This document shows positions 4,881-31,831 of a stretch of DNA of 34,964 bases, one piece after another; positions within the stretch are counted from its first letter, which is position 1, and each line of letters begins with the position of its first letter. Source of the DNA: Betaproteobacteria bacterium (lineage in GTDB: Bacteria > Pseudomonadota > Gammaproteobacteria > Burkholderiales > Usitatibacteraceae). The translations under genes were made by a program, and so were the position numbers. The notes below the pieces were generated by a model. The model ran no database searches. It was not told the DNA's origin and saw only the letters and a list, made by a program, of their open reading frames with translations. The stretch spans positions 1 to 34,964 of the forward strand of contig JANMPY010000106.1 of the NCBI GenBank assembly GCA_031370095.1, given 5' to 3'.

Positions 4881-6233
4881 TCAACGCAGGCCAAAACGAT
4901 CAAGAAGTTCGTAGAGTGTTGGGCGACTGATGCCCAGCATGTCGGCGGCCTTGCTCAGATTACCGTCCGCTCGTCCGAGCACGCGTACCACGGCCTGCTT
5001 CTCTGCCACGTCGCGCACTTGGCGAAGGTTTAGTGTTGGGCTTTCATGCTCGACATTCAAGCCAAGATCAGAACTGCGAATCACACTGCCCTCGGCCATG
5101 ATTACTGCACGCTTGATGCAATTTTCGAGCTCACGCACATTGCCTGTCCATGGATGCGCTTCGATCGCATTGATCGCGTCCGGTAATAATGTCAAAGAGC
5201 CGCGACGCTGTTCCTCAGCAAACCGCCGCACAAACGCATGCGCGAGCAAGCCTGGATCACCGGGCCTTTCTCTCAGCGGAGGGATTTCAAGCACGATCTC
5301 TGCGAGTCGAAAATACAGATCTTCCCGAAAATTTCCCTGCCCGATCATTTCTTTTAGATTTCGGTGGGTCGCACAGACGATGCGAACATCGACAGGAATT
5401 TCTTCGCGCCCGCCTACCCGTTCTATCACCCGCTCCTGTAGAAAACGCAACAGCTTGCCTTGCAGCGCCAGCGGAAGGTCGCCGATTTCGTCGAGGAAAA
5501 GTGTGCCTTTGTTCGCCGTCTCGATCTTTCCCAATGTTTGCTTTGTGGCACCGGTGAAGGCACCTTTCTCGTAGCCGAAAAGTTCGCTTTCAAGCAGCGT
5601 CTCGGGGATCGCCGCGCAGTTAATTGCCACGCACCGCTCCTTGCGGCGTGGGGAAAGATCGTGCAATGCTCGCGCGACCAGTTCTTTGCCGGTGCCAGAT
5701 TCACCCAGCAACAAAATTGTTGCTGTTGTCGGCGCAACTTTTTCCGCCATGTGGCAAACACGCAGCATCTCTGCATCACGGGTAATGATGCCGGCAAAAC
5801 CGGCGGGCTTTGCAGAAGACTGCAGACGTCGATTTTCCTCTTGTAGCTCATAAAGACAAAACGCGCGCTCAATGGTGAGCGACAGCAATTCCGGCTCGAA
5901 GGGTTTTGCGTAAAAATCGTAGGCGCCCAAGCGAATAGCTTTCAGCGCATTCGAGTGGTCGTCTTGGCCGGTAAGCACGATTACTTTGGTGTGCGGTGCC
6001 AGCGCCAGAATGTTCTGAAGTAGCGCGAAGCCTTCGGTGGCGTCTTCTGGATGTGGTGGCAAACCCAGATCCATCGTGATCACAGCCGGTTCATGACGAC
6101 GAACTTGTGCAATTGCGCTTTCAGGATCGCCCGCAACCAATGTTTCGTTTCGATCAAATGCCCACCGCATTTGCTTTTGTAGCGCCGGATCGTCCTCAAC
6201 GATAAGCAAGGGTTTTCGCTTTGTGTCGTTCAT
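4881..6233 (-). CDS. prsR: Sigma-54-dependent response regulator PrsR (PEP-CTERM-box transcription factor)
   Basis: 450 aa. REC domain (LLIVEDDP...), AAA+ Walker A GESGTGKE, sigma-54 contact motif GAFTGA (EKGAFTGA) and a C-terminal Fis-type HTH (AADMLGISRPTLYELL). Start overlaps the prsK stop (ATGA at 6230-6233). Confidence 0.92.
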   Translation of the reverse strand: MNDTKRKPLLIVEDDPALQKQMRWAFDRNETLVAGDPESAIAQVRRHEPAVITMDLGLPPHPEDATEGFALLQNILALAPHTKVIVLTGQDDHSNALKAIRLGAYDFYAKPFEPELLSLTIERAFCLYELQEENRRLQSSAKPAGFAGIITRDAEMLRVCHMAEKVAPTTATILLLGESGTGKELVARALHDLSPRRKERCVAINCAAIPETLLESELFGYEKGAFTGATKQTLGKIETANKGTLFLDEIGDLPLALQGKLLRFLQERVIERVGGREEIPVDVRIVCATHRNLKEMIGQGNFREDLYFRLAEIVLEIPPLRERPGDPGLLAHAFVRRFAEEQRRGSLTLLPDAINAIEAHPWTGNVRELENCIKRAVIMAEGSVIRSSDLGLNVEHESPTLNLRQVRDVAEKQAVVRVLGRADGNLSKAADMLGISRPTLYELLDRFGLR

Positions 6234-8338
6234 GCTTTTTCTTGAGGCTCTTCGATATTTATAGTATTTTCAGCAAGCAGCAGCAGTACGCGTACGCACG
6301 TGCCTGAGTTCAGCTCGCTTTCCACCACGATTTGACCGCCAATTCCGCTGATGTACTGAAAGCTTTCATTCATGCCGATGCCCATTCCTTGCGGTTTCGT
6401 TGTTTGGAACGGTCGAAACAGGCGTTCTTGCACGAACTCCTTTGTCATGCCTATGCCCCGGTCGACTATTTCTATCACTGCATATTTATCGTCGGAGTAT
6501 GCACGCAACATTACCCGGCTACCGGTCTCACCCGTTGCTTCGATGGCATTTTGAACGACGTGACCAATCACACGCTCCAAGTGTTCATCATGTGCGAGCG
6601 CAAGTAGAACTGGACCTGATTTTACGTCAATTGAGGTTGAGGATTCCCGCTTTGCCGCGACAACGCTATTGATGATTTCACGAACGTCAATGGGGCGAGG
6701 GTTGGCAGTTGGCGTTGCACCGGTTCTGAGCTGAAGCATCAATAGGTTCATGCGCGTAACGACGTGCTTGATCGTTTCGAGCATGTCTGCTTGAAATTCC
6801 GGCTTGTCGCGATGTCGGGTAGCGTTTTTCAGCAGCAAGACGAGTTGGGCAATGAGGTTTTTCAAATCATGAACGACAAAAGCGGACATGCGATTGAAGG
6901 CGTCGAATTTCTCCGCCTCCAACAAAGCTTCATTTGCTCGAAACTGCGCAAGATAACTTGCCGCTTGTCGGCTCGCCGTCTTCAGTAAATCCCTAATCTC
7001 CCAGTTAATATCGACAGGTGTCCGTGGTCGGGTCAGTATGACGAATCCAATCATGTCTGGCCCATTTGGCAGTGGAATCACCAACCAAGCGTCCTTGAGC
7101 GTTAATAGCCAATCTGGTAGGCTTAACGCCGGATAACGGTTGGGTGCGCCAACAAATTCGTCGATGCGAATGATCCATCCTGTGCGGACAAGAAACGTGG
7201 ACAGTGAACTTGAAACCAACTCGACCGCACCGATTGCAGACATATTCACACTGGCCACTTGGCAAAAAGCACCGCCGCGCTCCATCCACACAGCACCGCC
7301 GTGACTTTCCACCAGATCAGCAAGGGCACGTACAACTTTTTCATGCAGATTTTTTCCGGTCTCTGACGTTCCCAATACCTGGGTAAATTGCAACCATTCC
7401 TTTCTATAGTCGTACCGGTAGGAAAAAAGATGTTTGTTAATGAAAACCCTCAGCGTCGCACGTAAGCGACCTGATACCCCGAGAGTGGTGAGGCAGAGCA
7501 GCGCGGCAAAAACAAACGCGATTTGTAGTGTTTCGCCCCAGCCCCCCCCGAAGGCTCGCACCCAATAACCCGCGCCAGCAACTAGTAACAGGCAAATTCC
7601 CGCGATGCTGACAGCGGTCGAGTGGAATACGATTCCGCGTGAGACATGCAAATCAATCGTCCAGGTCGTATTGCGCGCAGTCGCCACGGCTACAAAGAAA
7701 ACGACGAACGCATGGGCAACACCGCGTGCCGCCCACATGCCAGGGTCAAGATGCTTGAATAATACAGCCTCGGCATACATAAAAAGATCAAAGGCAAACA
7801 TGCCCGCAAGCCCGATCACGAGCGGTTTTATTGCCCACCGACGGCTTTCCGGCGTACGTCGATATAGTTGTTCGGTCAATGCAAGCCCGAGGACTGAGAT
7901 ACCGAGCAGCACCAGAAATACGCCCATCGCCCCCTGTTCCCCGGTGGCGCGATGCCATGGCAGATCCTCCGGCAAAATCATCGCTGCAGTCAATAGTGCT
8001 GCGGTGCCAATAAGACGCCACGGTCGCGATTTTAATTCGTTCGGCGTGGCGCGCTTATCTGGCCACTCGCCGAGCAACAGCAACAAAAACGCGAGCCATG
8101 CACCGATGCGCAGAACATCGAAAACCCGCGCCAGCCACCAAAACTCCGGGATTGAAAACGCGAGCGCTACGCAGACAAAACTTGCCCACAGGGCGCTACC
8201 GACGGCGGCACCGAGCACCACTTGAGCCCGCCGTCCGCCGCGCCAGCTAAGCGTGAGCCGAGCTGCAAACGCGACGAAGATCAAAGCCGCGAAACCATAG
8301 CTCCATATTGTTGGATCGTAAAGTAAAGAGTTAGGCAA
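6230..8338 (-). CDS. prsK: PEP-CTERM system sensor histidine kinase PrsK
   Basis: 702 aa. About 300 aa multi-TM N-terminus, central GAF-like region, H-box FVVHDLKNL and an HATPase_c region (GIGMTKEF...GMGIGMNE). Translationally coupled to prsR. The first codon at 8338 is TTG, so the exact start is uncertain. Confidence 0.88.
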   Translation of the reverse strand: MPNSLLYDPTIWSYGFAALIFVAFAARLTLSWRGGRRAQVVLGAAVGSALWASFVCVALAFSIPEFWWLARVFDVLRIGAWLAFLLLLLGEWPDKRATPNELKSRPWRLIGTAALLTAAMILPEDLPWHRATGEQGAMGVFLVLLGISVLGLALTEQLYRRTPESRRWAIKPLVIGLAGMFAFDLFMYAEAVLFKHLDPGMWAARGVAHAFVVFFVAVATARNTTWTIDLHVSRGIVFHSTAVSIAGICLLLVAGAGYWVRAFGGGWGETLQIAFVFAALLCLTTLGVSGRLRATLRVFINKHLFSYRYDYRKEWLQFTQVLGTSETGKNLHEKVVRALADLVESHGGAVWMERGGAFCQVASVNMSAIGAVELVSSSLSTFLVRTGWIIRIDEFVGAPNRYPALSLPDWLLTLKDAWLVIPLPNGPDMIGFVILTRPRTPVDINWEIRDLLKTASRQAASYLAQFRANEALLEAEKFDAFNRMSAFVVHDLKNLIAQLVLLLKNATRHRDKPEFQADMLETIKHVVTRMNLLMLQLRTGATPTANPRPIDVREIINSVVAAKRESSTSIDVKSGPVLLALAHDEHLERVIGHVVQNAIEATGETGSRVMLRAYSDDKYAVIEIVDRGIGMTKEFVQERLFRPFQTTKPQGMGIGMNESFQYISGIGGQIVVESELNSGTCVRVLLLLAENTINIEEPQEKA

Positions 8339-10666: not shown

Positions 10667-11344
10667 TTAGGCTCGTGCAGATTTACGTCGCACTAATCCA
10701 AGACCAAGAAGACCCAGGCCCAGTAGTCCCAGCATTGTAGGTTCTGGCACGTTAGAAGGCGGATCCACCATCGTTACTACGCCGACAGTCGTGAAGCCGC
10801 CCCATTCGCCGTGTGTGATGGTGGTCACGTTAGCCAAGCTGAAACCATTGGTCGTATCGACAATGCTGCTGCCATTGGCAGAAAATGCTCCACCGGTAAA
10901 TGCACCGAGGCTGTTCAAAGGCGCGCCGTTAAGTAGCGACCCGACAGTAACCGTGCCACTGGAGATCCCGCCTGTCCAAGTACGCGCTGCAAGGTTGGAG
11001 CCAAGAGGGTTGATGAGGTTCGGATCAGACAAAATGATTGTTAGAGTCCCGGCTCCGCGCGAGCTGAAATCACTGGAGAGCAAACTGAGGAACGCAGGTT
11101 GGCCGTCGGGTGCAGGAGAGTTTGATATCCCGGTGGTCACATTGGCAAACCACAAACCCAAGCCCCCGGAAAAGTGAACAATGCCAACAGTAGAATCAGT
11201 GTCCCCAATTCCGTTGTCTTCAATGCTTACGGAGTTTTCGCCGGAACTCATAGTCAGAATCATAGTTGCATTGGCGAAAGTGGCACCTACTGCTAACCAT
11301 CCGGCCGCGAGAATTGTCGTAGCTATTTTTTTGATATTTTTCAT
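10667..11344 (-). CDS. PEP-CTERM sorting-domain protein (exosortase substrate), function unknown
   Basis: 225 aa. N-terminal signal peptide (MKNIKKIATTILAAGWLAVGATFANA), a Gly/Ser/Thr/Asn-rich Cys-free body, and the C-terminal VPEPTMLGLLGLGLLGLGLVRRKSARA (PEP motif + TM + basic tail). Confidence 0.93.
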   Translation of the reverse strand: MKNIKKIATTILAAGWLAVGATFANATMILTMSSGENSVSIEDNGIGDTDSTVGIVHFSGGLGLWFANVTTGISNSPAPDGQPAFLSLLSSDFSSRGAGTLTIILSDPNLINPLGSNLAARTWTGGISSGTVTVGSLLNGAPLNSLGAFTGGAFSANGSSIVDTTNGFSLANVTTITHGEWGGFTTVGVVTMVDPPSNVPEPTMLGLLGLGLLGLGLVRRKSARA

Positions 11345-11397: not shown

Positions 11398-11413
11398 AGC
11401 AAACACTATGCCA
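11398..11413 (-). promoter_or_regulatory. Sigma-54 (-24/-12) promoter for the PEP-CTERM gene at 10667-11344
   Basis: Minus-strand sequence TGGCATagtgtTTGCT matches TGGCAC-N5-TTGC(A/T) with correct spacing. It lies about 55 nt upstream of the ATG at 11344, in an AT-rich leader. Confidence 0.75.
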
Positions 11414-11765: not shown

Positions 11766-12458
11766 CTAGGCTGCGCGGCGGCGTGCCCACCCGATTCCGA
11801 TGAGACCAATTCCTAACAATCCCAAAGTTGTAGGTTCCGGTACATTTTGGAATGTAATCTGATCCTGAAAGCCTTGGCTCGTGTAAACGTTAAGCGAATA
11901 CGTGTTGGCGGAATTACTGGGGTTGTTCACTTGATTCAGCCAGCCTTGAGCGATCGTGTGCGGTGCCGAAAGCGCGGCGTTGGAAAAAAAACTGCCCGAT
12001 GCAAGATTGTAGGAAGGCGTGTTGCGCTCGTACAAAATTTCCCAAATGGCTAACTGAAATGCTGCCGCATTGTTTCCGCTGCCCGCACCAGGAGTCGTTG
12101 CTGCCGACAGGAACATCGTCGCCAAACGACCAAGGTCGTTTCGCGACGCAGAATTTAAGGTGAGACCACCTGCATCAAGGGAGTATTCGCCAGGCGTGCT
12201 GCCAGGGATGTACTGAAATATATCCACGCACCACGAAACAAACGAATCCACACTACCTGGCGTTGTATTTGTCATCACAAAACCACCGCCAGACCCGTTG
12301 TAATCCCGGGTAGGCGCGTCCGTCTTTGAAATACTCACCCCTGCACCACCAGCAGGTGCCCAAGCAGTTACCGTAAAGGGAATTGCCGCCGTCGGCAGCG
12401 CGACAAACACACTGCTTACCAAAAAACCGAGAATTGTTGCGCGCGTCATTGAGTTCAT
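11766..12458 (-). CDS. PEP-CTERM sorting-domain protein (exosortase substrate) with a thioester-domain-like Cys/Gln motif pair
   Basis: 230 aa. Signal peptide, then C-terminal VPEPTTLGLLGIGLIGIGWARRRAA. Single Cys in SWCVDIF (Cys77) and AAAFQLAIWEI (Gln135). An alternative start is the ATG at 12449. Confidence 0.93.
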   Translation of the reverse strand: MNSMTRATILGFLVSSVFVALPTAAIPFTVTAWAPAGGAGVSISKTDAPTRDYNGSGGGFVMTNTTPGSVDSFVSWCVDIFQYIPGSTPGEYSLDAGGLTLNSASRNDLGRLATMFLSAATTPGAGSGNNAAAFQLAIWEILYERNTPSYNLASGSFFSNAALSAPHTIAQGWLNQVNNPSNSANTYSLNVYTSQGFQDQITFQNVPEPTTLGLLGIGLIGIGWARRRAA

Positions 12459-12493
12459 TTTTTTATCCGCAAAAGATTTATTGACTAGCTTAG

Positions 12494-12509
12494 AGCAAAT
12501 GTTGAGCCA
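12494..12509 (-). promoter_or_regulatory. Sigma-54 (-24/-12) promoter for the PEP-CTERM gene at 11766-12458
   Basis: Minus-strand sequence TGGCTCaacatTTGCT has GG and GC at canonical spacing. It lies about 37 nt upstream of the ATG at 12458. Confidence 0.65.
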
Positions 12510-13152
12510 CTTACAATAAGAGGCTATTAAACAATGAGTTGCAGACTTGCTGAAGCTGGAATTCGTTCCAATAATGCCCTACTGTAATTTTTTTCGACAC
12601 TCATAATGATTCATGCTTTGAGAGGTTAGTGCCTTGTTCGTGCCGAGAGGACGTAGGGCGGTGGCACATTCCCTGAAATTTGTGCGCTGCGTAAAGTTTG
12701 CCGATGGATGACAAACATGCACAGTTTCGAAGGGGCGGCCCGCAAGAATTACAGCTTTTAGATCAGCAAATTCGTTCCTTCCGCGAATGTTGGAGCGGCT
12801 GTCTTAGCAGCCACGCGCATTGTTGACGTATGGTAGCCCGCGTGGATCGTTCAAAAATCGAATTGCCATTTGGTGACAAAACATTGCGGGCGCGTCCATA
12901 AGCCAAAAAAATTTATTGCGCAAACTTGCGTTCGTCGGCCTGTTTGCGGCAAGCCGTCTGCATACGAAAAAATCCCATGTTGGCATGCGCGAAAGATCAG
13001 GACTGTTATCGCATTTGTGCAGTGACCTGATGCCGTGGAAAGCGCAAACAGCAAGTTAAAATGAAAGCCGGTTGACGCGATGTGTCGTCTTTAAAACCAA
13101 AATTCCTTGGTTTTTTACGAAAGCGCCATTCATTTATGAGAGTTTGTCCAAA

Positions 13153-15138
13153 ATGTGCGGCATCGCAGGGATTCTTTCCAACTCTTCCAATAAACCGCCA
13201 GAGCGAGCCGAACTTACCGCGATGATCGCCCGCCTGCATCATCGTGGTCCGGACGGAACCGGCATATTGGTTGATGGTGCGATCGGGCTCGCACATGCGC
13301 GCTTGAGCATCATTGATCTTGTCGGCGGCGATCAGCCGATTCACAACGAGGATCGCACCGTCCAAATAGTGTTCAACGGCGAGATTTTTAACTACGTTGA
13401 ATTGCGCCACGAATTGATCGAGCAAGGCCATAAGTTCTACACGCAGTCAGACACGGAAGTTATCGTTCACCTTTACGAAGAACACGGCGAGCGATTCGTT
13501 GATCACCTGAATGGGCAATTCGCGATTGCGCTCTGGGATGCACGCAAGCAGACCTTGTTGCTGGCCCGTGATCGCACGGGAATCAGGCCGCTGTTTTATA
13601 CCGAGGCGGCGGGCCGATTTATTTTTGCGTCAGAAATAAAAGCGCTGTTCGCGTTGCCCGATGTGCGGCGCTGCATTGATGCCCAGGCACTGGCTGAAAC
13701 CTGCACGTATTGGTCGCCACTGGCGCCACGCACTGCATTCGAGGGCGTGTTGTCGCTGCCGCCCGGTCACGTGATGGTGGTCGCAAATGGTGTGCGGCGC
13801 ATTCAACGCTATTGGGACTGGACTTTCCCCAACGATCAATCCGGTGAGAATCGCCATCAGAATCGCAGCGAGGCCGACTACGCAGCTCAACTGCGCGAAC
13901 TACTGATCGACGCCGTGCGCCTGCAACTGCGCGCGGATGTACCGGTTGGCGCGTACTTAAGCGGCGGGCTGGATTCATCCATCATCACCTCGATCATTCG
14001 CAATTTTTCTGACACGCCGCTGCGGACATTTTCGCTGACGTTCGAAGACGCCGAATTCGACGAAAGCGCATATCAAAAAGAGTTGGTTGACTATCTCGGC
14101 ACCGAACACACGTCGATACGTTGCACGCGAGCCGACATTGCGGCCGCTTTTCCACGCACCGTATTGCACACTGAATCGACGATTGTTCGCACCGCACCCG
14201 CGCCACTTATGCTGCTTTCTGCCCACGTTCGTGAAGCAGGCTACAAGGTGGTGCTCACGGGCGAGGGAGCCGATGAAGTTTTTGGTGGCTACGATTTATT
14301 CAAAGAAGCAAAGATACGTCGCTTCTGGGCGCGATCACCGGAGTCAACCACGCGGCCACGAATACTCGAGCGTTTGTATCCGTATCTAAAAAATTCTCCA
14401 ACCGCCGGTCGCGCGTTCACGCAGGCATTCTTCCGCGACGGCATGGAGCATGTCGAGCAACCCTACTTCGCACACATTCCACGCTGGACAACGACCCGTC
14501 GCATCCACCAATTTTTTTCCCGCGAGGTGCGTGACGCTATTGGCGATTGGGATCCATACGGTGCAATTTTGGCGACGCTGCCGAGTGGCATAAATCGCTG
14601 GAAACCGATGGCGCGGGATCAGTATGTGGAGGCGCATACGCTGATGACTGGCTATTTACTTTGCTCGCAAGGTGACCGCGTGGCAATGGCAAATTCCATC
14701 GAAGGGCGTTTCCCGTTTCTCGACCATCGCTTGATCGAATTCGCCAACCAGCTTCCGCCACAACTTAAACTGCACGGCCTCACCGAAAAATACCTGCTCA
14801 AGAAATCAATCAAAGGACTACTGCCTGAAACGGTGCGCACGCGTACCAAGCAGCCTTATCGTGCACCCGACAGCCAAAGCTTTTTCAATGCTGGGGTTCC
14901 GGTGGATTACGTCGCTGAGTTATTCAGCGCGTCGAAAATTTCATCCGCAGGATATTTTGACGCGTCTGCCACGAGCAAATTATTTGAGAAGTGTCGCGCC
15001 GGTCGTGCCATTGGCTTCGCCGACAATATGGCATTCGTCTCGATTTTATCGACGATGTTGTTGCACGAACAATTCATCCTCGGGCACGACATGAGCGCAG
15101 TGGGGCTTGCATCTCGGTCGCGCTCGTTCGCAATTTGA
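13153..15138 (+). CDS. Asparagine synthase-family (class II glutamine) amidotransferase, XrtA/PEP-CTERM system type
   Basis: Ntn-amidotransferase N-terminus MCGIAGIL (catalytic Cys2), so the start is reset from 13072 to the ATG at 13153. PP-loop AYLSGGLDSS. 661 aa. Confidence 0.9.
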   Translation: MCGIAGILSNSSNKPPERAELTAMIARLHHRGPDGTGILVDGAIGLAHARLSIIDLVGGDQPIHNEDRTVQIVFNGEIFNYVELRHELIEQGHKFYTQSDTEVIVHLYEEHGERFVDHLNGQFAIALWDARKQTLLLARDRTGIRPLFYTEAAGRFIFASEIKALFALPDVRRCIDAQALAETCTYWSPLAPRTAFEGVLSLPPGHVMVVANGVRRIQRYWDWTFPNDQSGENRHQNRSEADYAAQLRELLIDAVRLQLRADVPVGAYLSGGLDSSIITSIIRNFSDTPLRTFSLTFEDAEFDESAYQKELVDYLGTEHTSIRCTRADIAAAFPRTVLHTESTIVRTAPAPLMLLSAHVREAGYKVVLTGEGADEVFGGYDLFKEAKIRRFWARSPESTTRPRILERLYPYLKNSPTAGRAFTQAFFRDGMEHVEQPYFAHIPRWTTTRRIHQFFSREVRDAIGDWDPYGAILATLPSGINRWKPMARDQYVEAHTLMTGYLLCSQGDRVAMANSIEGRFPFLDHRLIEFANQLPPQLKLHGLTEKYLLKKSIKGLLPETVRTRTKQPYRAPDSQSFFNAGVPVDYVAELFSASKISSAGYFDASATSKLFEKCRAGRAIGFADNMAFVSILSTMLLHEQFILGHDMSAVGLASRSRSFAI

Positions 15139-15160
15139 GCATACGAAGTTAGGAACCTGC

Positions 15161-16705
15161 ATGCTGCTCCACCATTTTTTTGACCGGACCACCGAACGCT
15201 TAGCCGACAAAGTTGCGTTGATTTGCGATGGCAAGCAATACACCTACGCGGAGCTCGACTCACGTATTGCGCAACTGGCGACGATGCTGCGCCAGCGCGG
15301 CGTTAAACATGGTGACCGCGCAGCACTTTTTCTGGACAACAGTCTTGAAATGGTCGTGGGTGTCTTTGCTGCGCTGCGGATTGGTGCGGTGTTCATGCCC
15401 GTGAACTCATTGACCAAGCATGACAAACTCGCCTTCATGCTTAACGACGCGCGCGCCAGTGCGCTGGTTACGCATGAAGCTTTGCGTGGAATATGGCAAC
15501 ACGCGCTCGGCGCCAATGCATCGATTCATACCTGTATTGTCGTTGGCGATGCCGCCGTTGAAATAGCCACCAGCACAAAGGCTGAGCGATGCGTGCCCTA
15601 CCCGCTGCCATCTGCGCCGCTGCAAAACGCGGATCGCGCCACGCAACTGATCGATCAGGATCTCGCCGCCATCATCTACACCTCCGGCTCGACCGGCCAT
15701 CCCAAGGGCGTGATGTTGACGCATCTCAATATGGTTTCGGCGGCGCGTTCGGTGAGTGGCTATCTTGGCCTCACACAAACCGACGTGATTCTGTGTGCGC
15801 TGCCGCTGGCATTTGACTATGGGCTTTATCAGATGCTGATGGCGTTCAAGGTTGGTGCCACGCTGGTACTTGAGCGCTCGTTTACGTTTCCAATCAAAGT
15901 GCTCGAGGTAATGGCGCAGCGGCGCGTGACCGTGTTCCTTGGTGTGTCGACGATATTCTCATTGCTGATGAATTTGAGGGGGCTGGAAAAATTTGATCTG
16001 GCGTCATTGCGCATGATCACTAATACCGCAGCCGCATTATCGGAGGAACAAATCCGCGGCTTGCGGGCGCTTTTTCCGCAGGCAACATTGTTTTCGATGT
16101 ACGGGCTGACCGAGTGTAAGCGCGTCACTTACCTGCCGCCCGAGCAGTTGGACATTCGACCCACCAGCGTCGGTCGCGGCATGCCAAACGAAGAGGTTTG
16201 GTTGGTTGACGATGTGGGTCAGCGGTTGCCCAACGGCAACACCGGTGAGCTCGTCATTCGCGGCTCAAACGTCATGCGCGGCTACTGGGAAAATCCATCA
16301 GAGACCGCGAAGCGACTTAAAGCTGGCCCAAACCCGGGTGAAATGGTGCTTTACTCTGGCGATCTTTTTCGCACCGATGACGAGGGCTGGCTATACTTCG
16401 TGGCGCGTCGCGATGACATCATCAAGAGCCGCGGCGAGAAGGTCAGTCCGCGCGAAGTGGAGAACGCAATTTACAGCCTGGAGGGCGTATTGGAGGCGGT
16501 GGTGATTGGCGTTGCCGATGAATTATTGGGTGAGGCAATCAAGGCGTATGTCGTGCAGAAAGAAGGTTTCGCGCTCACCGAACGCGAGGTAATTCGACAC
16601 TGCCTCGGACGACTGGAAAATTTTATGGCACCGAAATACGTGGAGTTTGTGTTGGAATTGCCGAAGACGGATACAGGTAAAATTAAACGGACGGGGCTCG
16701 GTTAA
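15161..16705 (+). CDS. AMP-forming acyl-CoA/acyl-ACP ligase (adenylate-forming superfamily), exosortase A-associated type
   Basis: AMP-binding signature IIYTSGSTGHPKGV, plus later GELVIRG...GY and GWLYFVARRDDIIKSRGEKV motifs. Start reset to the ATG at 15161, preceded by AGGAA at 15151. Confidence 0.88.
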   Translation: MLLHHFFDRTTERLADKVALICDGKQYTYAELDSRIAQLATMLRQRGVKHGDRAALFLDNSLEMVVGVFAALRIGAVFMPVNSLTKHDKLAFMLNDARASALVTHEALRGIWQHALGANASIHTCIVVGDAAVEIATSTKAERCVPYPLPSAPLQNADRATQLIDQDLAAIIYTSGSTGHPKGVMLTHLNMVSAARSVSGYLGLTQTDVILCALPLAFDYGLYQMLMAFKVGATLVLERSFTFPIKVLEVMAQRRVTVFLGVSTIFSLLMNLRGLEKFDLASLRMITNTAAALSEEQIRGLRALFPQATLFSMYGLTECKRVTYLPPEQLDIRPTSVGRGMPNEEVWLVDDVGQRLPNGNTGELVIRGSNVMRGYWENPSETAKRLKAGPNPGEMVLYSGDLFRTDDEGWLYFVARRDDIIKSRGEKVSPREVENAIYSLEGVLEAVVIGVADELLGEAIKAYVVQKEGFALTEREVIRHCLGRLENFMAPKYVEFVLELPKTDTGKIKRTGLG

Positions 16706-16840
16706 CCGTGGTCAGCAAGCCCGTTTTACAAGATGTAGATACAGCATTAGAGCGGCTTTCAGGGCATAAGTGCCATGAAGTGCCCGCTAATGCTAGTGTT
16801 TACTAATTAACAATCTCCTTTATTTTCGGCCTGGGAAATT

Positions 16841-17101
16841 ATGCAAGACATCAAGAATTTGGTTCGCAAGTTTCTTCTGGATAATTTTGTGATGGGCGGA
16901 AACATTGTCATCAATGACGATACTTCGTTTATGGCCGCCCACATACTCGACTCCACCGGATTCATTGAATTGATCCTTTTCATCGAAGAAACTTTCGACG
17001 TAAAAGTAGATGATGCCGAAATGCTGCCGGAAAATTTTGACAGTCTTATCAATATTGACGGCTATGTTGAACACAAGCGCGTCGCTGTTGCAAGCAGCTA
17101 G
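16841..17101 (+). CDS. Acyl carrier protein
   Basis: 86 aa, acidic, with the phosphopantetheine-attachment motif LDSTGFIELILFIEETF (Ser in DS-T/L context). Confidence 0.8.
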   Translation: MQDIKNLVRKFLLDNFVMGGNIVINDDTSFMAAHILDSTGFIELILFIEETFDVKVDDAEMLPENFDSLINIDGYVEHKRVAVASS

Positions 17102-17129
17102 CCGACACAACGCCAACGCAACCGACGCA

Positions 17130-18119
17130 ATGAGCACGCCAACGCTGCACCCGGATATTCTCGCGTTGGACTGCGAAGCCGAAGCGAATCGCATCGCACA
17201 GCGAATGCTTGAGATTGTCGGCAGCCAATTGCGTCGACGCGGCGTGATCATCGCGATCTCCGGCGGCGTCGATAGCGCGGTCTGCGCCGCGCTTGCTGTT
17301 CGCGCGTTCGGCTCCTCGAAGGTGTATGGATTGATGCTGCCCGAAACAGACTCTTCGTCCAACAGCTTGCGGCGCGGCAAATTGGTTGCTGAACAATTCG
17401 GCATTCCGTTCAGCGTCGAGAATATCGCGCCGACCCTTGAGGCACTCGGCTGCTACCGCTGGCGCGATGATGCGATGCGCGCGGTGTTTCCCGATTTCGG
17501 GCCGGACTGGAAAAGCAAAATTGCGATTGCAGGCGGTCGCGACGGCGCGTTCAATTATTTTAAATTGGTCGTGCAAACACCAACCGGTGAGCTGCATGAA
17601 AAACGCCTGCCCCCGCGCGAATATCTGCAAATAGTTGCCGCCACCAGTTTCAAACAACGGGTGCGAAAGATGCTGGAATATTTCCACGCTGATCGACTCA
17701 ATTACGCCGTCATCGGCACGCCCAACCGCCTGGAATACGATCAGGGATTCTTCGTCAAGAACGGCGACGGTGCGGCCGACCTGAAACCCATTGCGCATTT
17801 ATACAAGACTCAAGTGTATGCCTTGGCAAGGCATCTCGGCATTGCCGACGAGATCTGCAACGCTGCACCGACCACCGACACCTACAGTTTGCAACAAGGT
17901 CAGGACGAATTTTATTTCGCGCTGGCCTACGACAAAATGGATATTGCGCTCTGGTCTTTCAACCACAGCGTGCCCGAGGAAGAGCTGGCATCCTTTCTGG
18001 GCATGCCGCCAAGCCACGCCGCTTTTATTTACAAAGATATCATCGCCAAACGCCACGCCACCCGCTACCTGCACGCCAAGCCGGTGTTGGTCGAGCCGGT
18101 GGCAGAGCTTCCTGTTTGA
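17130..18119 (+). CDS. NAD+ synthetase-like (NadE family) PP-loop ATP pyrophosphatase
   Basis: PP-loop ISGGVDSAV near the N-terminus and NadE-like overall length (329 aa). The start is set at the ATG at 17130 (MSTPTLHPDIL...), because the upstream extension to 17010 overlaps the ACP gene. Confidence 0.75.
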   Translation: MSTPTLHPDILALDCEAEANRIAQRMLEIVGSQLRRRGVIIAISGGVDSAVCAALAVRAFGSSKVYGLMLPETDSSSNSLRRGKLVAEQFGIPFSVENIAPTLEALGCYRWRDDAMRAVFPDFGPDWKSKIAIAGGRDGAFNYFKLVVQTPTGELHEKRLPPREYLQIVAATSFKQRVRKMLEYFHADRLNYAVIGTPNRLEYDQGFFVKNGDGAADLKPIAHLYKTQVYALARHLGIADEICNAAPTTDTYSLQQGQDEFYFALAYDKMDIALWSFNHSVPEEELASFLGMPPSHAAFIYKDIIAKRHATRYLHAKPVLVEPVAELPV

Positions 18120-18153
18120 TTTCATCAGCCGCTTGTCAAGGCTCCGACCAGAA

Positions 18154-20178
18154 ATGACCTCTGTTGCGGGCGAGGAAAATATTCATGAAAATCTGACGCC
18201 AACAGCGTTGACACTTTTTCATCAATGCTTGAACGAGCTCTCGTCGGCGCTCAATGCCCTGCCTGATAAACCGGACGAAACACCGATCAGTACGCTTGCA
18301 GCACTTTGGCATACCGCAGCAGGTCGACCAATCTCGGCCAAGCGCGCGGTTGCAGACGCATTGCCCGAGTTGGATCAAGCTGCGACAACGAAATTGGCTG
18401 CGCTATTAAGGGACCGCATCGCGGGCATCCCGCTGGCCTACCTCACCGGTCGGCAGAATTTCATGGGCGTGGAGCTTTTTGCCAGCGATGCGGCGCTTAT
18501 ACCGCGTGCGGAGACCGAGTTGCTAGGCATTGCTGCGCTCACGCAATTGCGCGCGGTGGTGCGCGAGCAAGCCCATGCCACGGTGATCGACGTCTGTACC
18601 GGGTCTGGCAACCTTGCGCTGGCGCTTGCGTGGCACGAGCCGCACGCGCGCGTCTGGGCAGCCGATCTTTCCGAGGACGCCATCGCGCTGGCGCGTCGAA
18701 ATCTTACCCACCTCGGTCTGGCTGGTCGCGTTGAGTTCCGTGCTGGCGACCTATTGGCACCGTTTGATTTGCCAGAGTTTCATGGCGGAGTCGACTTGCT
18801 TATTTGCAATCCGCCGTACATATCAAGCGGAAAAGTCGATGGAATGCCCGGGGAAATTATTGAGCATGAGCCGCGTCTGGCGTTTGATGGCGGCCCGCTG
18901 GGAATTAGAATTTTATTGCGATTGATTTCTGAAGCGCCACGTTTTTTGCGGCCCGGCGGCTGGCTTGCCTTTGAGATCGGGCTTGGACAGGGCCCGGGCA
19001 TTCGCAAGCGGCTTGAACAGGGCGGTGGTTACGTTGATATTAATGAAGTCTTCGACAGGAACGGTCAGATACGTGCTTTGATTGCGCGCCTGCCTCAGCC
19101 GAAAGGGCAAGTGCCAGTCGAGCGCAATAACGACAGCGGCAACACCTATTCAGTCGCTGTCGCCAACGTAATGGCAGATGGGGAAAAAATTCGTTCGCTT
19201 TGGCGCACGGGTCTAAACGCTGCCACGTTGTGCGAGGCTAAATTCGATTGGTACTATCAGCGCAACCCGGACGGTGCGCCCGATATATTGTTTTTGCTCC
19301 ACAGCGGCAATGCAGGTGCAGTAGGCGTCGCCGCTGTGGGGCACCGCCGTATGCGATTTAACAACGTGATGTTGCTAACCGCCGTAACCGTGGATTTTGT
19401 TGTACATCCGGAACATCGAACCCTGTTTCCCGCATTGGTATTGCAAAAGGAAGTGTGCAGGCGCGCGCTACAAATGCACCATGTGGTCTGGGGATTGCCA
19501 AACCTCAATGCCACTGCGGTTTTTAGCCGCGCTGGCTATCAATTGGTTGGCCAGATGGTGCGTTACGCCCGTGTTTTGCGTTCCGCAGAGTATTTGGCAC
19601 GCCACCTTTCCCCATGGACGAGCCGCGTGGCGGGCGCAATTGTTGATTGGATACTGTTGGGGATTCTCGCCTGGCGCAAACCAAGGGCACGCAGTTATCT
19701 CACCAAATGGCAGCAGCGCCCGGACGCCCGCTTCGACGATCTCTGGCAGCGAAGTGCTGCGCCCGACCAATTGATGGGTGTGCGCGATGAGCAGTATTTG
19801 ACCTGGCGATTCGGCGACTACCTGCTTCGAGCCTATTCGTTTTTCACCCTTGCGTCCGCCGTGGATCAACGTCTTATCGGTTACGCGGTGTGCGAAATTG
19901 ACCAGCAGTCGTTGCACGTCCGCGATTTTCTGATCGATCCCAATATAGCCGGGGCGGCGGCATACCTATGGCACAGCTTGGTTAAGGAAGCGTATCGGAA
20001 GGGCCTTACGAGTCTTTCCGTTGAGTTTCATGGCGGTGAGCTTCTAAAGGAAGAATTAACCGACGCCGGCTTGAGCGCACGCGATCAAAGGCCCCTGTAT
20101 GCTGCACTCGCGGATGAGTCGCTGCCGCTGTTGCAAGCGCGACACTGGTATCTTACCTGTGCGGACGTAGACGGCTAA
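18154..20178 (+). CDS. Fusion protein: HemK/PrmC-family N5-glutamine-type SAM methyltransferase + FemAB-like double GNAT region
   Basis: The N-terminal ~315 aa carry PrmC hallmarks: IPLAYLTGRQNFMGVELFASDAALIPRAETE, SAM motif VIDVCTGSGNLALA, NPPY in LLICNPPYISS, and EHEPRLAFDGGPLG. The C-terminal ~340 aa look like two GNAT-like halves (FLLHSGNAGAVGVAAV...VDFVVHPEHR; LIGYAVCEI...VRDFLIDP). The frame is continuous with no stop. Start taken at the ATG at 18154 (TTG at 18133 is also possible). The 17791-18153 extension is rejected. Confidence 0.75.
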   Translation: MTSVAGEENIHENLTPTALTLFHQCLNELSSALNALPDKPDETPISTLAALWHTAAGRPISAKRAVADALPELDQAATTKLAALLRDRIAGIPLAYLTGRQNFMGVELFASDAALIPRAETELLGIAALTQLRAVVREQAHATVIDVCTGSGNLALALAWHEPHARVWAADLSEDAIALARRNLTHLGLAGRVEFRAGDLLAPFDLPEFHGGVDLLICNPPYISSGKVDGMPGEIIEHEPRLAFDGGPLGIRILLRLISEAPRFLRPGGWLAFEIGLGQGPGIRKRLEQGGGYVDINEVFDRNGQIRALIARLPQPKGQVPVERNNDSGNTYSVAVANVMADGEKIRSLWRTGLNAATLCEAKFDWYYQRNPDGAPDILFLLHSGNAGAVGVAAVGHRRMRFNNVMLLTAVTVDFVVHPEHRTLFPALVLQKEVCRRALQMHHVVWGLPNLNATAVFSRAGYQLVGQMVRYARVLRSAEYLARHLSPWTSRVAGAIVDWILLGILAWRKPRARSYLTKWQQRPDARFDDLWQRSAAPDQLMGVRDEQYLTWRFGDYLLRAYSFFTLASAVDQRLIGYAVCEIDQQSLHVRDFLIDPNIAGAAAYLWHSLVKEAYRKGLTSLSVEFHGGELLKEELTDAGLSARDQRPLYAALADESLPLLQARHWYLTCADVDG

Positions 20179-20276
20179 TGCGGCGTTATCAAATTGTCAC
20201 AACATAAAACCGGCTGAATGGCTCGACGAGTGGCGGGTTCGGCAGAACACCGCCCAAGCGCTCATCTGGAGGCGCT

Positions 20277-21401
20277 TCATTCAGGCTTGTTTTCGTCCGT
20301 ATTGCGCGGCGGCAAACGATCAATCAGTCGCGCCAGAAGATCCAATGATGCAGAGTGACTGCGTTCGAGCCGCACCATGGTGCGTTCGAGCCGCAGCATG
20401 CTTTCCTCCACCCGAAGCCACCGCGCTGCCAAATCCTCACGACCCAGACTGAACGCGATTTGATGTGCGTCCTGAGCATCGTCATAACCGTTGCCGGCAT
20501 TGGACGAGTAATGATCTCCGGCAAGTAGGCTATCCGCATTTGACGTCGCGCCTATATGAGCACCATGATGTGTCGACGACCTCGGCGCAAGCGTTTCACT
20601 ACTCATTTCTCCCGCGACTTCATGCACGTCCTCAAGCGTAAACACGCGTTTTTCCGCCAGAAACCCTGACAGCAGCAAGCGATCACAAACGGAATTGATG
20701 CGTCGCGGCACGCCGCCGCTGGCCGCAAAAATCGCGCGGTACGCATCGGGCTCGAATTGAGGCGAGTCTTTCCATCCAACGCACGTCAGACGATGCTCAA
20801 TGTAGCCGCGGGTTTCATCTTCGTCCATTGGGCCAATATGGCATGCCGCGATGACCCGCTGACGTAACTGCTGCATTTGCGGGCTCTGCAAAATATGACG
20901 AAACTCCGGTTGGCCAATCAGGAAGCTTTGTAACAATGCGTGCGTCTCAAGCTGAAAATTTGACAGCATGCGCAATTCTTCAACCGCGCGCGGCGTGAGG
21001 TTTTGCGCCTCGTCGACCACCAGCAGGCATCGCTTGCCCTGCTTTGCAACTGACACCAGAAAAGCCTCAAGCGAGAGCAGTAAATTCGCTTTGTCGGTCT
21101 GCTTGGTTGGAATGCCGAACGCCGCCGCGACCATGCGAAGCGTATCGTCGGCGTCCAATTGTGTACTCACCAGATTCGCTGCGACGACCCGCTCCGGATC
21201 CAGCTTGGCGAAAATATTTCGTACCAGCGTGGTCTTGCCGGCACCGACTTCACCAGTGATCACGATGAATCCCTCGTTCTGATGCAAGCCATACTCAAGG
21301 TATGACATCGCGCGCCGATGCTGGCGGCTACCAAAATAAAATGATGGATCAGGATTGAGTTGGAATGGCTTCTTGGTCAGCCCATAAAACGATGCATACA
21401 T
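20277..21401 (-). CDS. XrtA/PEP-CTERM system-associated AAA ATPase (ExeA/GspA-like)
   Basis: MYASFYGLTKKPFQLNPDPSFYF..., Walker A GEVGAGKTT and Walker B LLVVDEAQNL. It has a ~100-aa low-complexity/coiled C-terminal extension. Confidence 0.85.
   Translation of the reverse strand: MYASFYGLTKKPFQLNPDPSFYFGSRQHRRAMSYLEYGLHQNEGFIVITGEVGAGKTTLVRNIFAKLDPERVVAANLVSTQLDADDTLRMVAAAFGIPTKQTDKANLLLSLEAFLVSVAKQGKRCLLVVDEAQNLTPRAVEELRMLSNFQLETHALLQSFLIGQPEFRHILQSPQMQQLRQRVIAACHIGPMDEDETRGYIEHRLTCVGWKDSPQFEPDAYRAIFAASGGVPRRINSVCDRLLLSGFLAEKRVFTLEDVHEVAGEMSSETLAPRSSTHHGAHIGATSNADSLLAGDHYSSNAGNGYDDAQDAHQIAFSLGREDLAARWLRVEESMLRLERTMVRLERSHSASLDLLARLIDRLPPRNTDENKPE
20361..20402 (-). repeat. In-frame 21-bp tandem duplication inside the ATPase C-terminal extension
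   Basis: gcgttcgagccgcaccatggt / gcgttcgagccgcagcatgct (18 of 21 identical), encoding SMLRLER-TMVRLER. Confidence 0.8.
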
Positions 21402-30718: not shown

Positions 30719-31831
30719 TCAATGCGGCTCGCGATGGGTCACGAACAGCCACGCAAGAAAAATAACGGTGACCAGCGGCCACGTCTCGTGCATCCACCGC
30801 GTCAAGCTCGCAAAATTGACGAGCTGACCGTGCGGCCAATTGAACAAGCGCAGCGTTTCATCAAAAGCGCCGTAGATGCTGGTGATTTTCGCCATCAGGC
30901 CGCCCGCAAAAACAAATAGCGTGGCACAGAATGCGCGCCAACGGAAACTAAAGCGTGAGAAATATGCCGCCAGAATCAATCCCGAGGTTAGCCCGATCAC
31001 GGTCGCGGGGGCCATCCAGTCGATCATTTGTGGCGCTTTCAACATCAGTGCCGCCATCGCCACCTTGATCACGAAACCGGCCGCGAGCAGCAACATCACG
31101 TTGAGCATCACTCCACGGTTCGGTCGCATCAACAACGCCACAAACAGCGCGAATCCGCACACGTTGAGCGTGATACCGATCGCCTGCGGCAGTAACACCA
31201 ATGGGTTGTAAGGATGCGCATTCGCCGTGTCGAACGGATTCGCGATGTGGCCGGCCTCGAAAAACGGAATCGCCGGATTGATCTGCGCAAATATCCAGCA
31301 GCCAAGCAAAATTAGGCCCCAGCCGGTCTCAAAGGAGGATGAAAAATATCGATGCCGCCAATTCCGCCACGCGCCGATGAGGAGGCGGCCCGGTGTCGCC
31401 AGAACCAGTGCTGCGCCTACCGCCGCGCCGACCGTGTTCGCCGACAAATCTACAAACGAAGACACCCGCCCCGGCAGAAATGACTGTAAAAATTCAAAGC
31501 CAAACGAAAGCGCAGCACTTGCCGCGACCGCGAGTGCGCAGATTTGCGCGCGGTGCGTAATCCTTACCGTCGCGATGTGCCGGCGATCCCGCAACAAAGC
31601 GGCGAGCATCGCGCCCAGCGGCGCGTATGCGGCAATATTGAGCATGACATCGAACGCAATCACGTACTTCGGCCAAACGAAGAACGTAAACACCTCCGGC
31701 CAGCGCCAGCCAAAAAAAGGATTCAGGCTTGCGTAAGCGAGCATCAGCGAGTACGCCAGCAGCGCGCCACGGTCGGCGCGAATGATGCGCGTGCGCGTGG
31801 CGCTTAACGACGGGTCCGGGCTTGTAGGCAC
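30719..31831 (-). CDS. VanZ-like family integral membrane protein with extended C-terminal TM region
   Basis: VanZ-type motif FGFEFLQSFLPGRVSSFVDLSANTVGAAVGA, polytopic throughout. The first codon is GTG, so the start is uncertain (ATG alternative at 31744). Confidence 0.7.
   Translation of the reverse strand: MPTSPDPSLSATRTRIIRADRGALLAYSLMLAYASLNPFFGWRWPEVFTFFVWPKYVIAFDVMLNIAAYAPLGAMLAALLRDRRHIATVRITHRAQICALAVAASAALSFGFEFLQSFLPGRVSSFVDLSANTVGAAVGAALVLATPGRLLIGAWRNWRHRYFSSSFETGWGLILLGCWIFAQINPAIPFFEAGHIANPFDTANAHPYNPLVLLPQAIGITLNVCGFALFVALLMRPNRGVMLNVMLLLAAGFVIKVAMAALMLKAPQMIDWMAPATVIGLTSGLILAAYFSRFSFRWRAFCATLFVFAGGLMAKITSIYGAFDETLRLFNWPHGQLVNFASLTRWMHETWPLVTVIFLAWLFVTHREPH

Follow-up and report, generated by a model that had tools for sequence, protein, structure and literature searches.

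We describe a fusion gene (18154..20178, plus strand) in contig JANMPY010000106.1 of a Betaproteobacteria bacterium (assembly GCA_031370095.1), whose 34,964 nucleotides were analyzed as a whole and are called the window hereafter. The gene joins a PrmC/HemK-type N-methyltransferase to a tandem-GNAT acyltransferase domain, and it closes a five-gene operon that also encodes an AsnB-like amidotransferase, an adenylating ligase, a free-standing carrier protein and a NadE-like amidating enzyme. We propose that its product is, on balance, probably a bifunctional tailoring enzyme that would N-methylate a carrier-bound acyl intermediate and then transfer the acyl group. A preliminary description, made from the sequence alone, had noticed the two-part protein and missed the four other genes of the operon, which are the context that explains the fusion gene.

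The two domains are encoded by a real, conserved single gene

The fusion gene encodes 674 amino acids (aa) in one uninterrupted frame, as first described, from an ATG at 18154 to a stop codon at 20176-20178. The frame is open upstream to 17791; this stretch overlaps the NadE-like gene in a different frame and all orthologues begin MTS..., so we take the ATG at 18154 as the start. In the 90%-identity cluster of the protein, which draws on independent NCBI, ENA and Logan assemblies, all 25 members (25/25) are 674 aa long. Full-length fused homologues form 17 clusters, with identities from 92% down to 45% (one group at 59-92%, another at 45-49%). A contig from a related metagenome-assembled genome (MAG), L006, has 89% nucleotide identity to the window and keeps the same fused gene, its frame and its synteny. 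Thus, the fusion is not a sequencing, assembly or frameshift artefact, and the earlier worry about a missed stop or frameshift at the junction can be set aside. The fusion gene is a real, conserved single gene.

Between the two domains lies a linker (19090..19146, plus strand, aa 313-331) that is poorly conserved and predicted to be disordered. Its alignment columns are variable, and in the full-length AlphaFold2 (AF2) model the predicted local distance difference test score (pLDDT) falls below 50 at aa 317-330. Related loci (L numbers, with flanks of up to 10 kb) come from a genome scan with an 11-sequence GNAT alignment and from a metagenome scan with the NadE-like protein as query, in which 80 loci were mapped of at least 544 relatives. 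In two related loci, the methyltransferase and the GNAT are encoded by adjacent, separate genes in unchanged order, with a 46-bp gap in L008 and an 8-bp overlap in L010, and the linker matches the stop/start junction of these split genes.

The fused form is present in the window, L001, L006, L007, L025 and L026. It is rare: an exhaustive search found that 3 of 1.84 billion representatives at 50% identity span both domains, and none of the 80 mapped metagenome loci carries it. In a neighbour-joining tree of the GNAT domain, built without support values, the fused forms fall into three separate clades; fusion or fission probably happened more than once. We infer that the fusion gene arose when two genes lying side by side in a conserved cassette of five or six genes were joined. 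In one locus (L099, 3-1455) the gene order is methyltransferase, NadE, tandem GNAT, and so the adjacency of methyltransferase and GNAT that permits fusion is not universal.

A carrier-protein operon ends with the fusion gene

All five genes of the operon lie on the plus strand. The first (13153..15138; reading frame open from 13072, likely start MCGIAG) encodes an AsnB-like glutamine-dependent amidotransferase. Its nucleophile Cys2 is intact, it scores 525 bits on TIGR01536, its best PDB matches are 7ylz and 1ct9, and the gene is syntenic in nearly all related loci. On TIGR03108, the model of the XrtA amidotransferase, it reaches 464.5, under the cutoff of 816.9. The second gene (15161..16705; frame open from 15107, likely start MLLHHFF) encodes an adenylating ligase that resembles the adenylation (A) domains of nonribosomal peptide synthetases (NRPSs). 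This ligase scores 473.8 on TIGR03098, below the cutoff of 592, and 278 on TIGR01733, and in the PDB it is matched best by the LgrA adenylation domains. An Asp is retained in its A4 motif, LAFDYGLYQ, at the position of GrsA Asp235. Glycine specificity, considered from a 302-bit LgrA match, was rejected, as this score is the sum over two different A domains.

The third gene (16841..17101) encodes a free-standing acyl/peptidyl carrier protein of 86 aa with an LDSTG phosphopantetheine-attachment motif; its NCBIfam matches are weak (AmcB and the OlsHI acyl carrier protein), and its orthologues are called PF00550 (PP-binding). The fourth (17130..18119, likely start MSTPTL) encodes a NadE-like NH3-dependent PP-loop amidating enzyme. 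Called mechanically, its open reading frame (ORF) runs from 17010 and overlaps the carrier gene; homologues align only from residue ~41, and the true start is therefore probably the ATG at 17130. The protein scores 485 bits on NF002048 (PRK00876; cutoff 313) and matches PF02540, its PDB matches are NH3-dependent NAD synthetases, and it is the most conserved component of the cassette, with 57-82% identity across phyla. The operon encodes neither a thioesterase nor a condensation domain. In scans for promoters and terminators over 12400-20400, the counts did not exceed the shuffled expectation and are uninformative on the operon boundaries.

The operon can be compared with the XrtA-associated ligase set, which consists of a TIGR03098 ligase, a decarboxylase, hydrolases 1 and 2 and an acyl carrier protein. 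TIGR03098 is the best NCBIfam match of the window's ligase, and a second set of this kind lies nearby in the related loci L003, L026 and L108. However, the window's ligase stays below the TIGR03098 cutoff, and its partners are the AsnB-like and NadE-like enzymes, the methyltransferase and the GNAT, not a decarboxylase and hydrolases.

The methyltransferase is a divergent HemK-family member

PrmC/HemK enzymes are protein glutamine methyltransferases that act on release factors and on L3. The N-terminal domain of the fusion protein (18154..19089, plus strand, aa 1-312) is assigned to the PrmC/HemK-type NPPY N-methyltransferases by hidden Markov models (HMMs), by the AF2 model and by a template modelling (TM) score of 0.80 to 1vq1 and 2b3t. 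TIGR00536 places it in the HemK family, with 175.3 bits against a cutoff of 115.5 (aa 26-313). Every motif quoted in the preliminary description is present: AYLTGRQNFMGVELF...ALIPRAETE (aa 114-122), the S-adenosylmethionine (SAM) motif VIDVCTGSGN (18583-18612, aa 144-153), NPPY (18808-18819, aa 219-222) and HEPRLAFDGGPLG (aa 238-250). A flexible post-NPPY loop spans aa 223-246. NPPY and VIDVCTGSGN are kept in all aligned homologues save for conservative changes, and LIPRxETE is likewise conserved. The claim of a PrmC/HemK-type domain with an intact SAM pocket and NPPY motif therefore stands.

The full-length AF2 model superposes on whole PrmC/HemK chains (Foldseek TM 0.79-0.81, normalised to those chains, over ~292 columns), so the two-subdomain PrmC architecture, an N-terminal helical bundle followed by a Rossmann domain, is predicted to be retained. 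With the E. coli (2b3t/1t43) and T. maritima (1nv8/1vq1) enzymes the domain shares 25-30% identity, the SAM motifs, the LIPRxETE hairpin and the NPPY catalytic motif. These enzymes are also the nearest solved sequences (E ~3e-25), to which only query residues 72-311 align. They differ from it in the sequence of the N-terminal subdomain, where the first ~70 residues of the methyltransferase gave no alignment to E. coli PrmC. The alignment has there a conserved motif specific to the subfamily, LPDKP(D/E)ET..TL.ALW..AAG.P.S, which in the window reads LPDKPDET..ALWH.AAG (nt 18259-18282 onward). According to PMC9060474, which cites Graille 2005 on this point, the N-terminal subdomain of PrmC supplies much of the RF1 contact. 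The sequence type of this RF1/RF2-contacting subdomain is not matched in the fusion protein, which carries its own motif (DKP[DE]ET..LW..AAG) instead. Its sequence marks the methyltransferase as a divergent HemK-family member of the paralogue type, which has its catalytic machinery intact and is not demonstrably a release-factor enzyme.

The methyltransferase travels with a widespread cassette

The operon is one form of a cassette whose core comprises the AsnB-like, ligase, carrier and NadE-like genes, with an optional PrmC-like methyltransferase and a variable acyltransferase, here the tandem GNAT. The cassette occurs in the same order in other Betaproteobacteria, in Xanthomonadales (Luteimonas, Dokdonella, Rhodanobacteraceae) and in Polyangiaceae, with lineages as named in the MAG and genome records, and Verrucomicrobiae have at least a NadE-methyltransferase fusion. 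The at least 544 metagenome relatives are those of its NadE-like core. The methyltransferase is found in about a quarter of the metagenome loci, directly beside NadE in ~20 of 22, and this subfamily always travels with the cassette. L004, the Luteimonas loci, L108 and others do without it; the GNAT of L108 is among the closest to that of the window. The tandem-GNAT family is present in 6 of the 80 metagenome loci, and the others have hexapeptide acyltransferases, a single GNAT or nothing adjacent. Besides the window, the loci in which the cassette sits inside XrtA-type or other polysaccharide loci are L003, L005, L006, L024, L025, L058, L063, L067, L074, L081, L089 and L093; in L001 and L004 it is not obviously inside such a locus.

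Methyltransferases recognised by their N-terminal motif as members of the same subfamily are also joined to other proteins: to NadE (P0058, P0060, P0064), to the cassette ligase (P0068, P0188), to a carrier domain at the end of an NRPS module (P0069, P0210), to a single GNAT (P0063) and to a hexapeptide acyltransferase (P0066). These fusions to cassette parts tie the methyltransferase to a carrier-protein pathway and not to translation.

Several other arrangements were observed among these relatives. P0069 (L023, 8001-9731) and P0210 are actinobacterial-looking NRPSs in which a terminal PrmC-like methyltransferase follows the carrier domain, in the order condensation, adenylation, peptidyl carrier protein (PCP), methyltransferase (C-A-PCP-MT); this terminal methyltransferase type may have gone unrecognised in NRPS annotation. 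A substrate reading from the A domain beside this PCP-methyltransferase (L023/P0210) was dropped, as the domain looks degenerate or frameshifted and no specificity code is readable. Many stand-alone cassette methyltransferases (P0019-P0049, e.g. L024 8001-9179) are ~400 aa long; ~100 aa of this length is an additional conserved stretch at the N-terminus (MSQANLYA.L.GVLAVE...), which the fused form lacks. In L026 (8691-11241) and L108 (5197-7707), the cassette is followed directly by genes for a second carrier protein, an acyl-CoA-dehydrogenase-like protein and a DUF1839 protein, and then, in L108, by one for a fused double Hydrolase_4 protein. The window does not have this set, and its cassette abuts a convergent ATPase gene. 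Pfam found nothing in the ORFs flanking the Luteimonas cassette of L015, where high-GC ORF calls are unreliable.

The tandem-GNAT domain belongs to a family of its own

The C-terminal domain (19147..20175, plus strand, aa 332-674) was delimited by AF2, Foldseek and the family alignment. When the C-terminal 354 aa were modelled with a 63-sequence alignment, AF2 gave a pLDDT of 92.9 and a predicted TM score (pTM) of 0.90, with two GNAT lobes, an N-lobe (~aa 332-474) and a C-lobe (~aa 515-668), and a long linker helix between them. Foldseek against the PDB returned 368 matches at E <=0.001, and the 50 best are all tandem-GNAT, N-myristoyltransferase or Eis-type. At the top stand the Eis-like tandem GNATs 2hv2, 2i00, 3n7z and 2ozg (E ~1e-15, TM ~0.6), followed by the clavulanate tandem GNAT 2wpx and then by N-myristoyltransferases and Eis. 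The double-GNAT fold of the preliminary description is confirmed by this model and these matches.

HMMs say little about the domain: PF00583 scores 20.5 bits on the C-terminal half, against a gathering threshold of 20.7, and PF13527 has no match in the fusion protein. A profile search found 88 relatives of the GNAT domain, mostly stand-alone 'hypothetical' proteins of 345-390 aa, and only two distant family members, P0150 and P0151, carry PF13527. The N-lobe contains the family-invariant PEHRTLFPAL (nt 19408-19437) at the position of the cofactor-binding loop, so that in the family alignment an invariant HRTLFPA stands in place of the canonical coenzyme A (CoA) pyrophosphate loop, Q/RxxGxG/A. 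Eight arginines are invariant in the family as well, and many of these could dock an acidic carrier.

The Eis-like acetyltransferases, M. tuberculosis Eis among them, are the best structural matches and share the two GNAT lobes. However, their identity to the fusion protein is only 10-16%, and the absence of PF13527 and the replaced acetyl-CoA loop motif set the fusion protein apart. Eis also has a third, SCP2-like C-terminal domain, whereas the model of the fusion protein has two GNAT lobes only and departs from this three-domain architecture. On the structural models, the domain belongs to a tandem-GNAT family without a Pfam or NCBIfam model, which is closest to Eis-like and N-myristoyltransferase structures and not to FemAB.

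Presence of the methyltransferase follows the pocket type of the ligase

Across the related loci (L001-L108), the A4 pockets of the cassette ligases are of the types FDYGLYQ, (F/Y)(S/A)YGNSV and NFGYGLFQ. All cassettes with the methyltransferase (20/20) have an FDYGLYQ ligase, which keeps Asp235. In the 33 cassettes without it, the residue is Asp in 8 and Ser, Ala or Gly in 25. The association between methyltransferase and ligase type gives a Fisher p of 1.6e-8, in a set of phylogenetically related loci and with shared ancestry not corrected for. It appears from these sequence comparisons that the methyltransferase performs a tailoring step for a single substrate class, which is probably an amino acid.

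A model for the fusion protein and its alternatives

Our model suggests the following route. The ligase would adenylate a carboxylic acid that bears an amino group and load it as a thioester on the carrier protein, and the AsnB-like and/or NadE-like enzymes would turn a free carboxylate into a carboxamide. The PrmC-like domain, with its SAM and NPPY pocket, would then N-methylate this carboxamide, the same chemistry that PrmC performs on the glutamine side chain. Finally, the tandem GNAT would take the finished acyl group off the carrier and attach it to a cytoplasmic amine acceptor, which in this organism would most plausibly be a precursor of the XrtA-locus exopolysaccharide. The flexible linker would simply hold the last two activities together. 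The evidence from gene fusions agrees with the earlier idea of two activities that work one after the other on a single substrate. Because the operon lacks a thioesterase and a condensation domain, only the tandem GNAT among its products could plausibly catalyse offloading. We argue for a carrier-bound donor over an aminoacyl-tRNA because the operon encodes its own ligase and carrier protein, and for a small acyl substrate tethered to that carrier because the methyltransferase is joined elsewhere to an adenylation domain, a carrier domain, NadE and acyltransferases.

Several points weigh against this model. The acid that is loaded and the acceptors of the methyl and acyl groups are all putative. 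The usual acyl donor of GNATs is acyl-CoA, not an acyl-carrier protein. Offloading may also work differently, as many cassettes lack any adjacent acyltransferase. The full-length AF2 model has a pTM of 0.52 without confident interdomain packing, and it therefore provides no structural evidence for channelling. The assignment of Asp235 relies on a positional mapping to a presumed GrsA reference sequence, and the role of this residue, which binds the amino group of the substrate in amino-acid-activating A domains, is a rule of thumb. The correlation with ligase type would also fit methylation of an amino group. On TIGR03534, the equivalog model of the release-factor enzyme, the methyltransferase scores 201.7 bits, slightly over the cutoff of 199.1 (model positions 15-252).

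In the main alternative, the pathway is unchanged and the PrmC-like domain methylates not a carboxamide but an amine, namely the alpha- or side-chain amino group of the amino acid on the carrier. The restriction of the methyltransferase to cassettes with Asp235-keeping ligases speaks for it. So does the persistence of the AsnB-like and NadE-like enzymes in cassettes without the methyltransferase, since amide formation alone does not call for one. NPPY enzymes of the HemK2 type are described in PMC10804810 as methylating lysine too. However, the catalytic core most resembles that of bacterial PrmC, an enzyme with a primary amide as its acceptor, and the methyltransferase is most consistently found beside, or joined to, the amide-forming NadE. 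We consider methylation of an amino group rather unlikely, with a modest chance of being right.

Our model also gives the tandem GNAT the role of taking the acyl group from the carrier. It might instead use acetyl-CoA or another acyl-CoA to cap an amino group on either the intermediate or the final acceptor, with another enzyme performing the transfer. Its closest structures are acetyl-CoA-dependent Eis-like enzymes, its weak HMM matches are to GNAT acetyltransferases, and most cassettes manage without this family, which only 6 of the 80 metagenome loci have. In contrast, the canonical CoA pyrophosphate motif has given way to the invariant HRTLFPA, and the operon encodes no other offloading enzyme. 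The acyltransferase position is filled by different folds across loci, which fits a transfer step with varying acceptors. Capping from acyl-CoA thus seems improbable to us, if with a small chance of being correct.

The preliminary description had read the protein differently, as a FemAB-like aminoacyl transferase joined to a glutamine methyltransferase, acting on Gln/Asn-rich PEP-CTERM proteins or standing in the position of the stand-alone FemAB gene of XrtA loci, which it would replace. The gene does lie in an XrtA/PEP-CTERM locus near two PEP-CTERM genes, one orthologue also adjoins a PEP-CTERM gene, and PrmC enzymes methylate protein glutamines; Fem proteins, too, have a tandem-GNAT-type architecture. 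The label FemAB-like did not hold, however. In Pfam and NCBIfam searches (E up to 0.1-1) the fusion protein had no match to the FemAB/FemX models PF02388 and PF13480 (Acetyltransf_6) or to the XrtA FemAB-like model TIGR03019, hhalign of the 63-sequence family profile against the FemAB-like PF13480 protein of a related locus gave a probability of 0.85%, and Fem structures are absent among the 50 best Foldseek matches in the PDB, where Eis-like, N-myristoyltransferase and clavulanate tandem GNATs are nearest. Nor did the proposed position hold, as L025 carries the fusion gene together with a separate PF13480 gene, and both fusion and cassette also occur away from exopolysaccharide and XrtA genes. 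As for the substrate, the neighbouring PEP-CTERM proteins are not Gln/Asn-rich, with only ~7% Asn, and the fusions of the methyltransferase to the ligase, a carrier domain and NadE point to a small tethered one. We regard this earlier reading as very unlikely.

Even less probable is that the N-terminal domain is the housekeeping release-factor PrmC, accidentally joined to a downstream gene. Such a view could appeal to the TIGR03534 score and to the complete PrmC fold, N-terminal helical subdomain included. However, the TIGR03534 scores of ten further subfamily members, 185-226 bits, straddle the cutoff, and their matches begin at model positions 13-30, whereas a canonical-looking PrmC representative of 291 aa reaches 266 bits over positions 2-252. 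The methyltransferase also differs from PrmC in that its N-terminal ~70 residues have the subfamily motif in place of an alignable PrmC sequence. No prfA is present in the 35-kb window, and the gene lies inside a biosynthetic operon, in a cassette whose close relatives dispense with it and whose enzymes it is joined to elsewhere. Finally, although split versions of both genes exist in other organisms, the 25 equal-length cluster members from independent assemblies, the fused orthologues down to 45% identity and the same frame in L006 leave practically no room for a sequencing or assembly error that merged two genes.

The fusion gene lies in an XrtA/PEP-CTERM exopolysaccharide locus

The window is a typical XrtA/PEP-CTERM exopolysaccharide locus, with an XrtA-EpsI fusion, two PEP-CTERM proteins and the system ATPase, and it also encodes a TIGR03016 outer-membrane protein, a tyrosine kinase, a chain-length determinant, an export protein and a TPR protein. 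The XrtA-locus markers all score above their NCBIfam cutoffs save for the PEP-CTERM proteins, of which PEP2 passes only TIGR02595, the generic model of the PEP-CTERM domain, and PEP1 passes none. The second PEP-CTERM gene (11766-12458, minus strand), with weak PepA/EDSAP-like matches, is absent from the otherwise syntenic L006, and a homologue of it adjoins the cassette in L026. A further gene (30719-31831, minus strand) encodes a 370-aa protein with a VanZ-like domain in its first ~145 residues only and no NCBIfam match.

Sigma-54-type -24/-12 elements (TGGCA..N..TTGC, with one mismatch each) are found on the minus strand at 11399-11413 and 12495-12509, about 55 and 37 nt upstream of the PEP-CTERM genes 10667-11344 and 11766-12458 (minus strand). 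Over the whole window, such elements number 8 against 4 +/- 2 expected, which is not above chance. Among the other proteins encoded in the window are a sigma-54 activator (4881-6233) and a histidine kinase (6230-8338). RpoN-dependent expression of PEP-CTERM genes has been described (PMC9850573), and the positions of the elements in the window fit it.

In L025, the genuine FemAB-like PF13480 gene (13863-15038, minus strand) lies in the same exopolysaccharide locus as the fusion gene. This locus also contains genes for a UDP-glucose dehydrogenase, a priming transferase, deacetylases and a flippase.

Discussion

Close parallels to the cassette include D-alanylation by DltA/DltC and the addition of glycine to lipid A by AlmE/AlmF/AlmG of Vibrio. 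In both, a small carrier protein receives a small amino acid from a stand-alone adenylating enzyme, and a separate transferase moves it to a glycan or lipid of the cell envelope. To our knowledge, these systems have neither AsnB-like and NadE-like amidating enzymes nor a methyltransferase. Their transferases are membrane-bound proteins of the MBOAT or LPLAT type, in contrast to the soluble tandem GNAT here.

Both domains of the fusion protein are of known superfamilies, HemK by HMM and GNAT by fold. The methyltransferase subfamily, the tandem-GNAT family, the cassette and the fusion all appear to be undescribed in the literature searched. Searches for the gene combination (exosortase, acyl carrier protein, AsnB and NAD synthase; HemK in biosynthetic clusters) found nothing relevant, with subscription journals mostly outside their reach, and like the preliminary description we found no characterised member with this architecture. 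Two candidates were considered and rejected as unrelated to the fusion family: AerE, an Asn N-methyltransferase that is only a distant structural relative of PrmC, and the N-methyl carboxamide of fischerazole, which is made by a different route.

Taking the cassette as a whole, we tentatively hypothesize a broader scheme, which we hold to be possible and somewhat doubtful. The cassette may represent an undescribed, widespread NRPS-like route in which an amidated amino-acyl group on a free-standing carrier, N-methylated in the variants that have the methyltransferase (for example to an N5-methylglutaminyl-type group), would be grafted onto an exopolysaccharide or envelope precursor. The PrmC-like enzymes would then be the first release-factor-type glutamine methyltransferases recruited to a small molecule tethered to a carrier.

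If a PrmC subfamily does serve a carrier pathway, it would extend PrmC/HemK chemistry to the tailoring of small molecules or glycans. Annotation would benefit as well, as the proteins concerned are automatically named 'release factor glutamine methyltransferase', 'NAD(+) synthase' or 'hypothetical'. The partners to which the methyltransferase is fused (the ligase, a carrier domain, NadE and three different acyltransferase folds) suggest a coupling of the corresponding steps. Environmental bacteria very commonly carry the core cassette, often within XrtA/PEP-CTERM exopolysaccharide loci, and it is a concrete, testable candidate for the decoration of XrtA-locus polymers, which would be relevant to the formation of flocs and biofilms.

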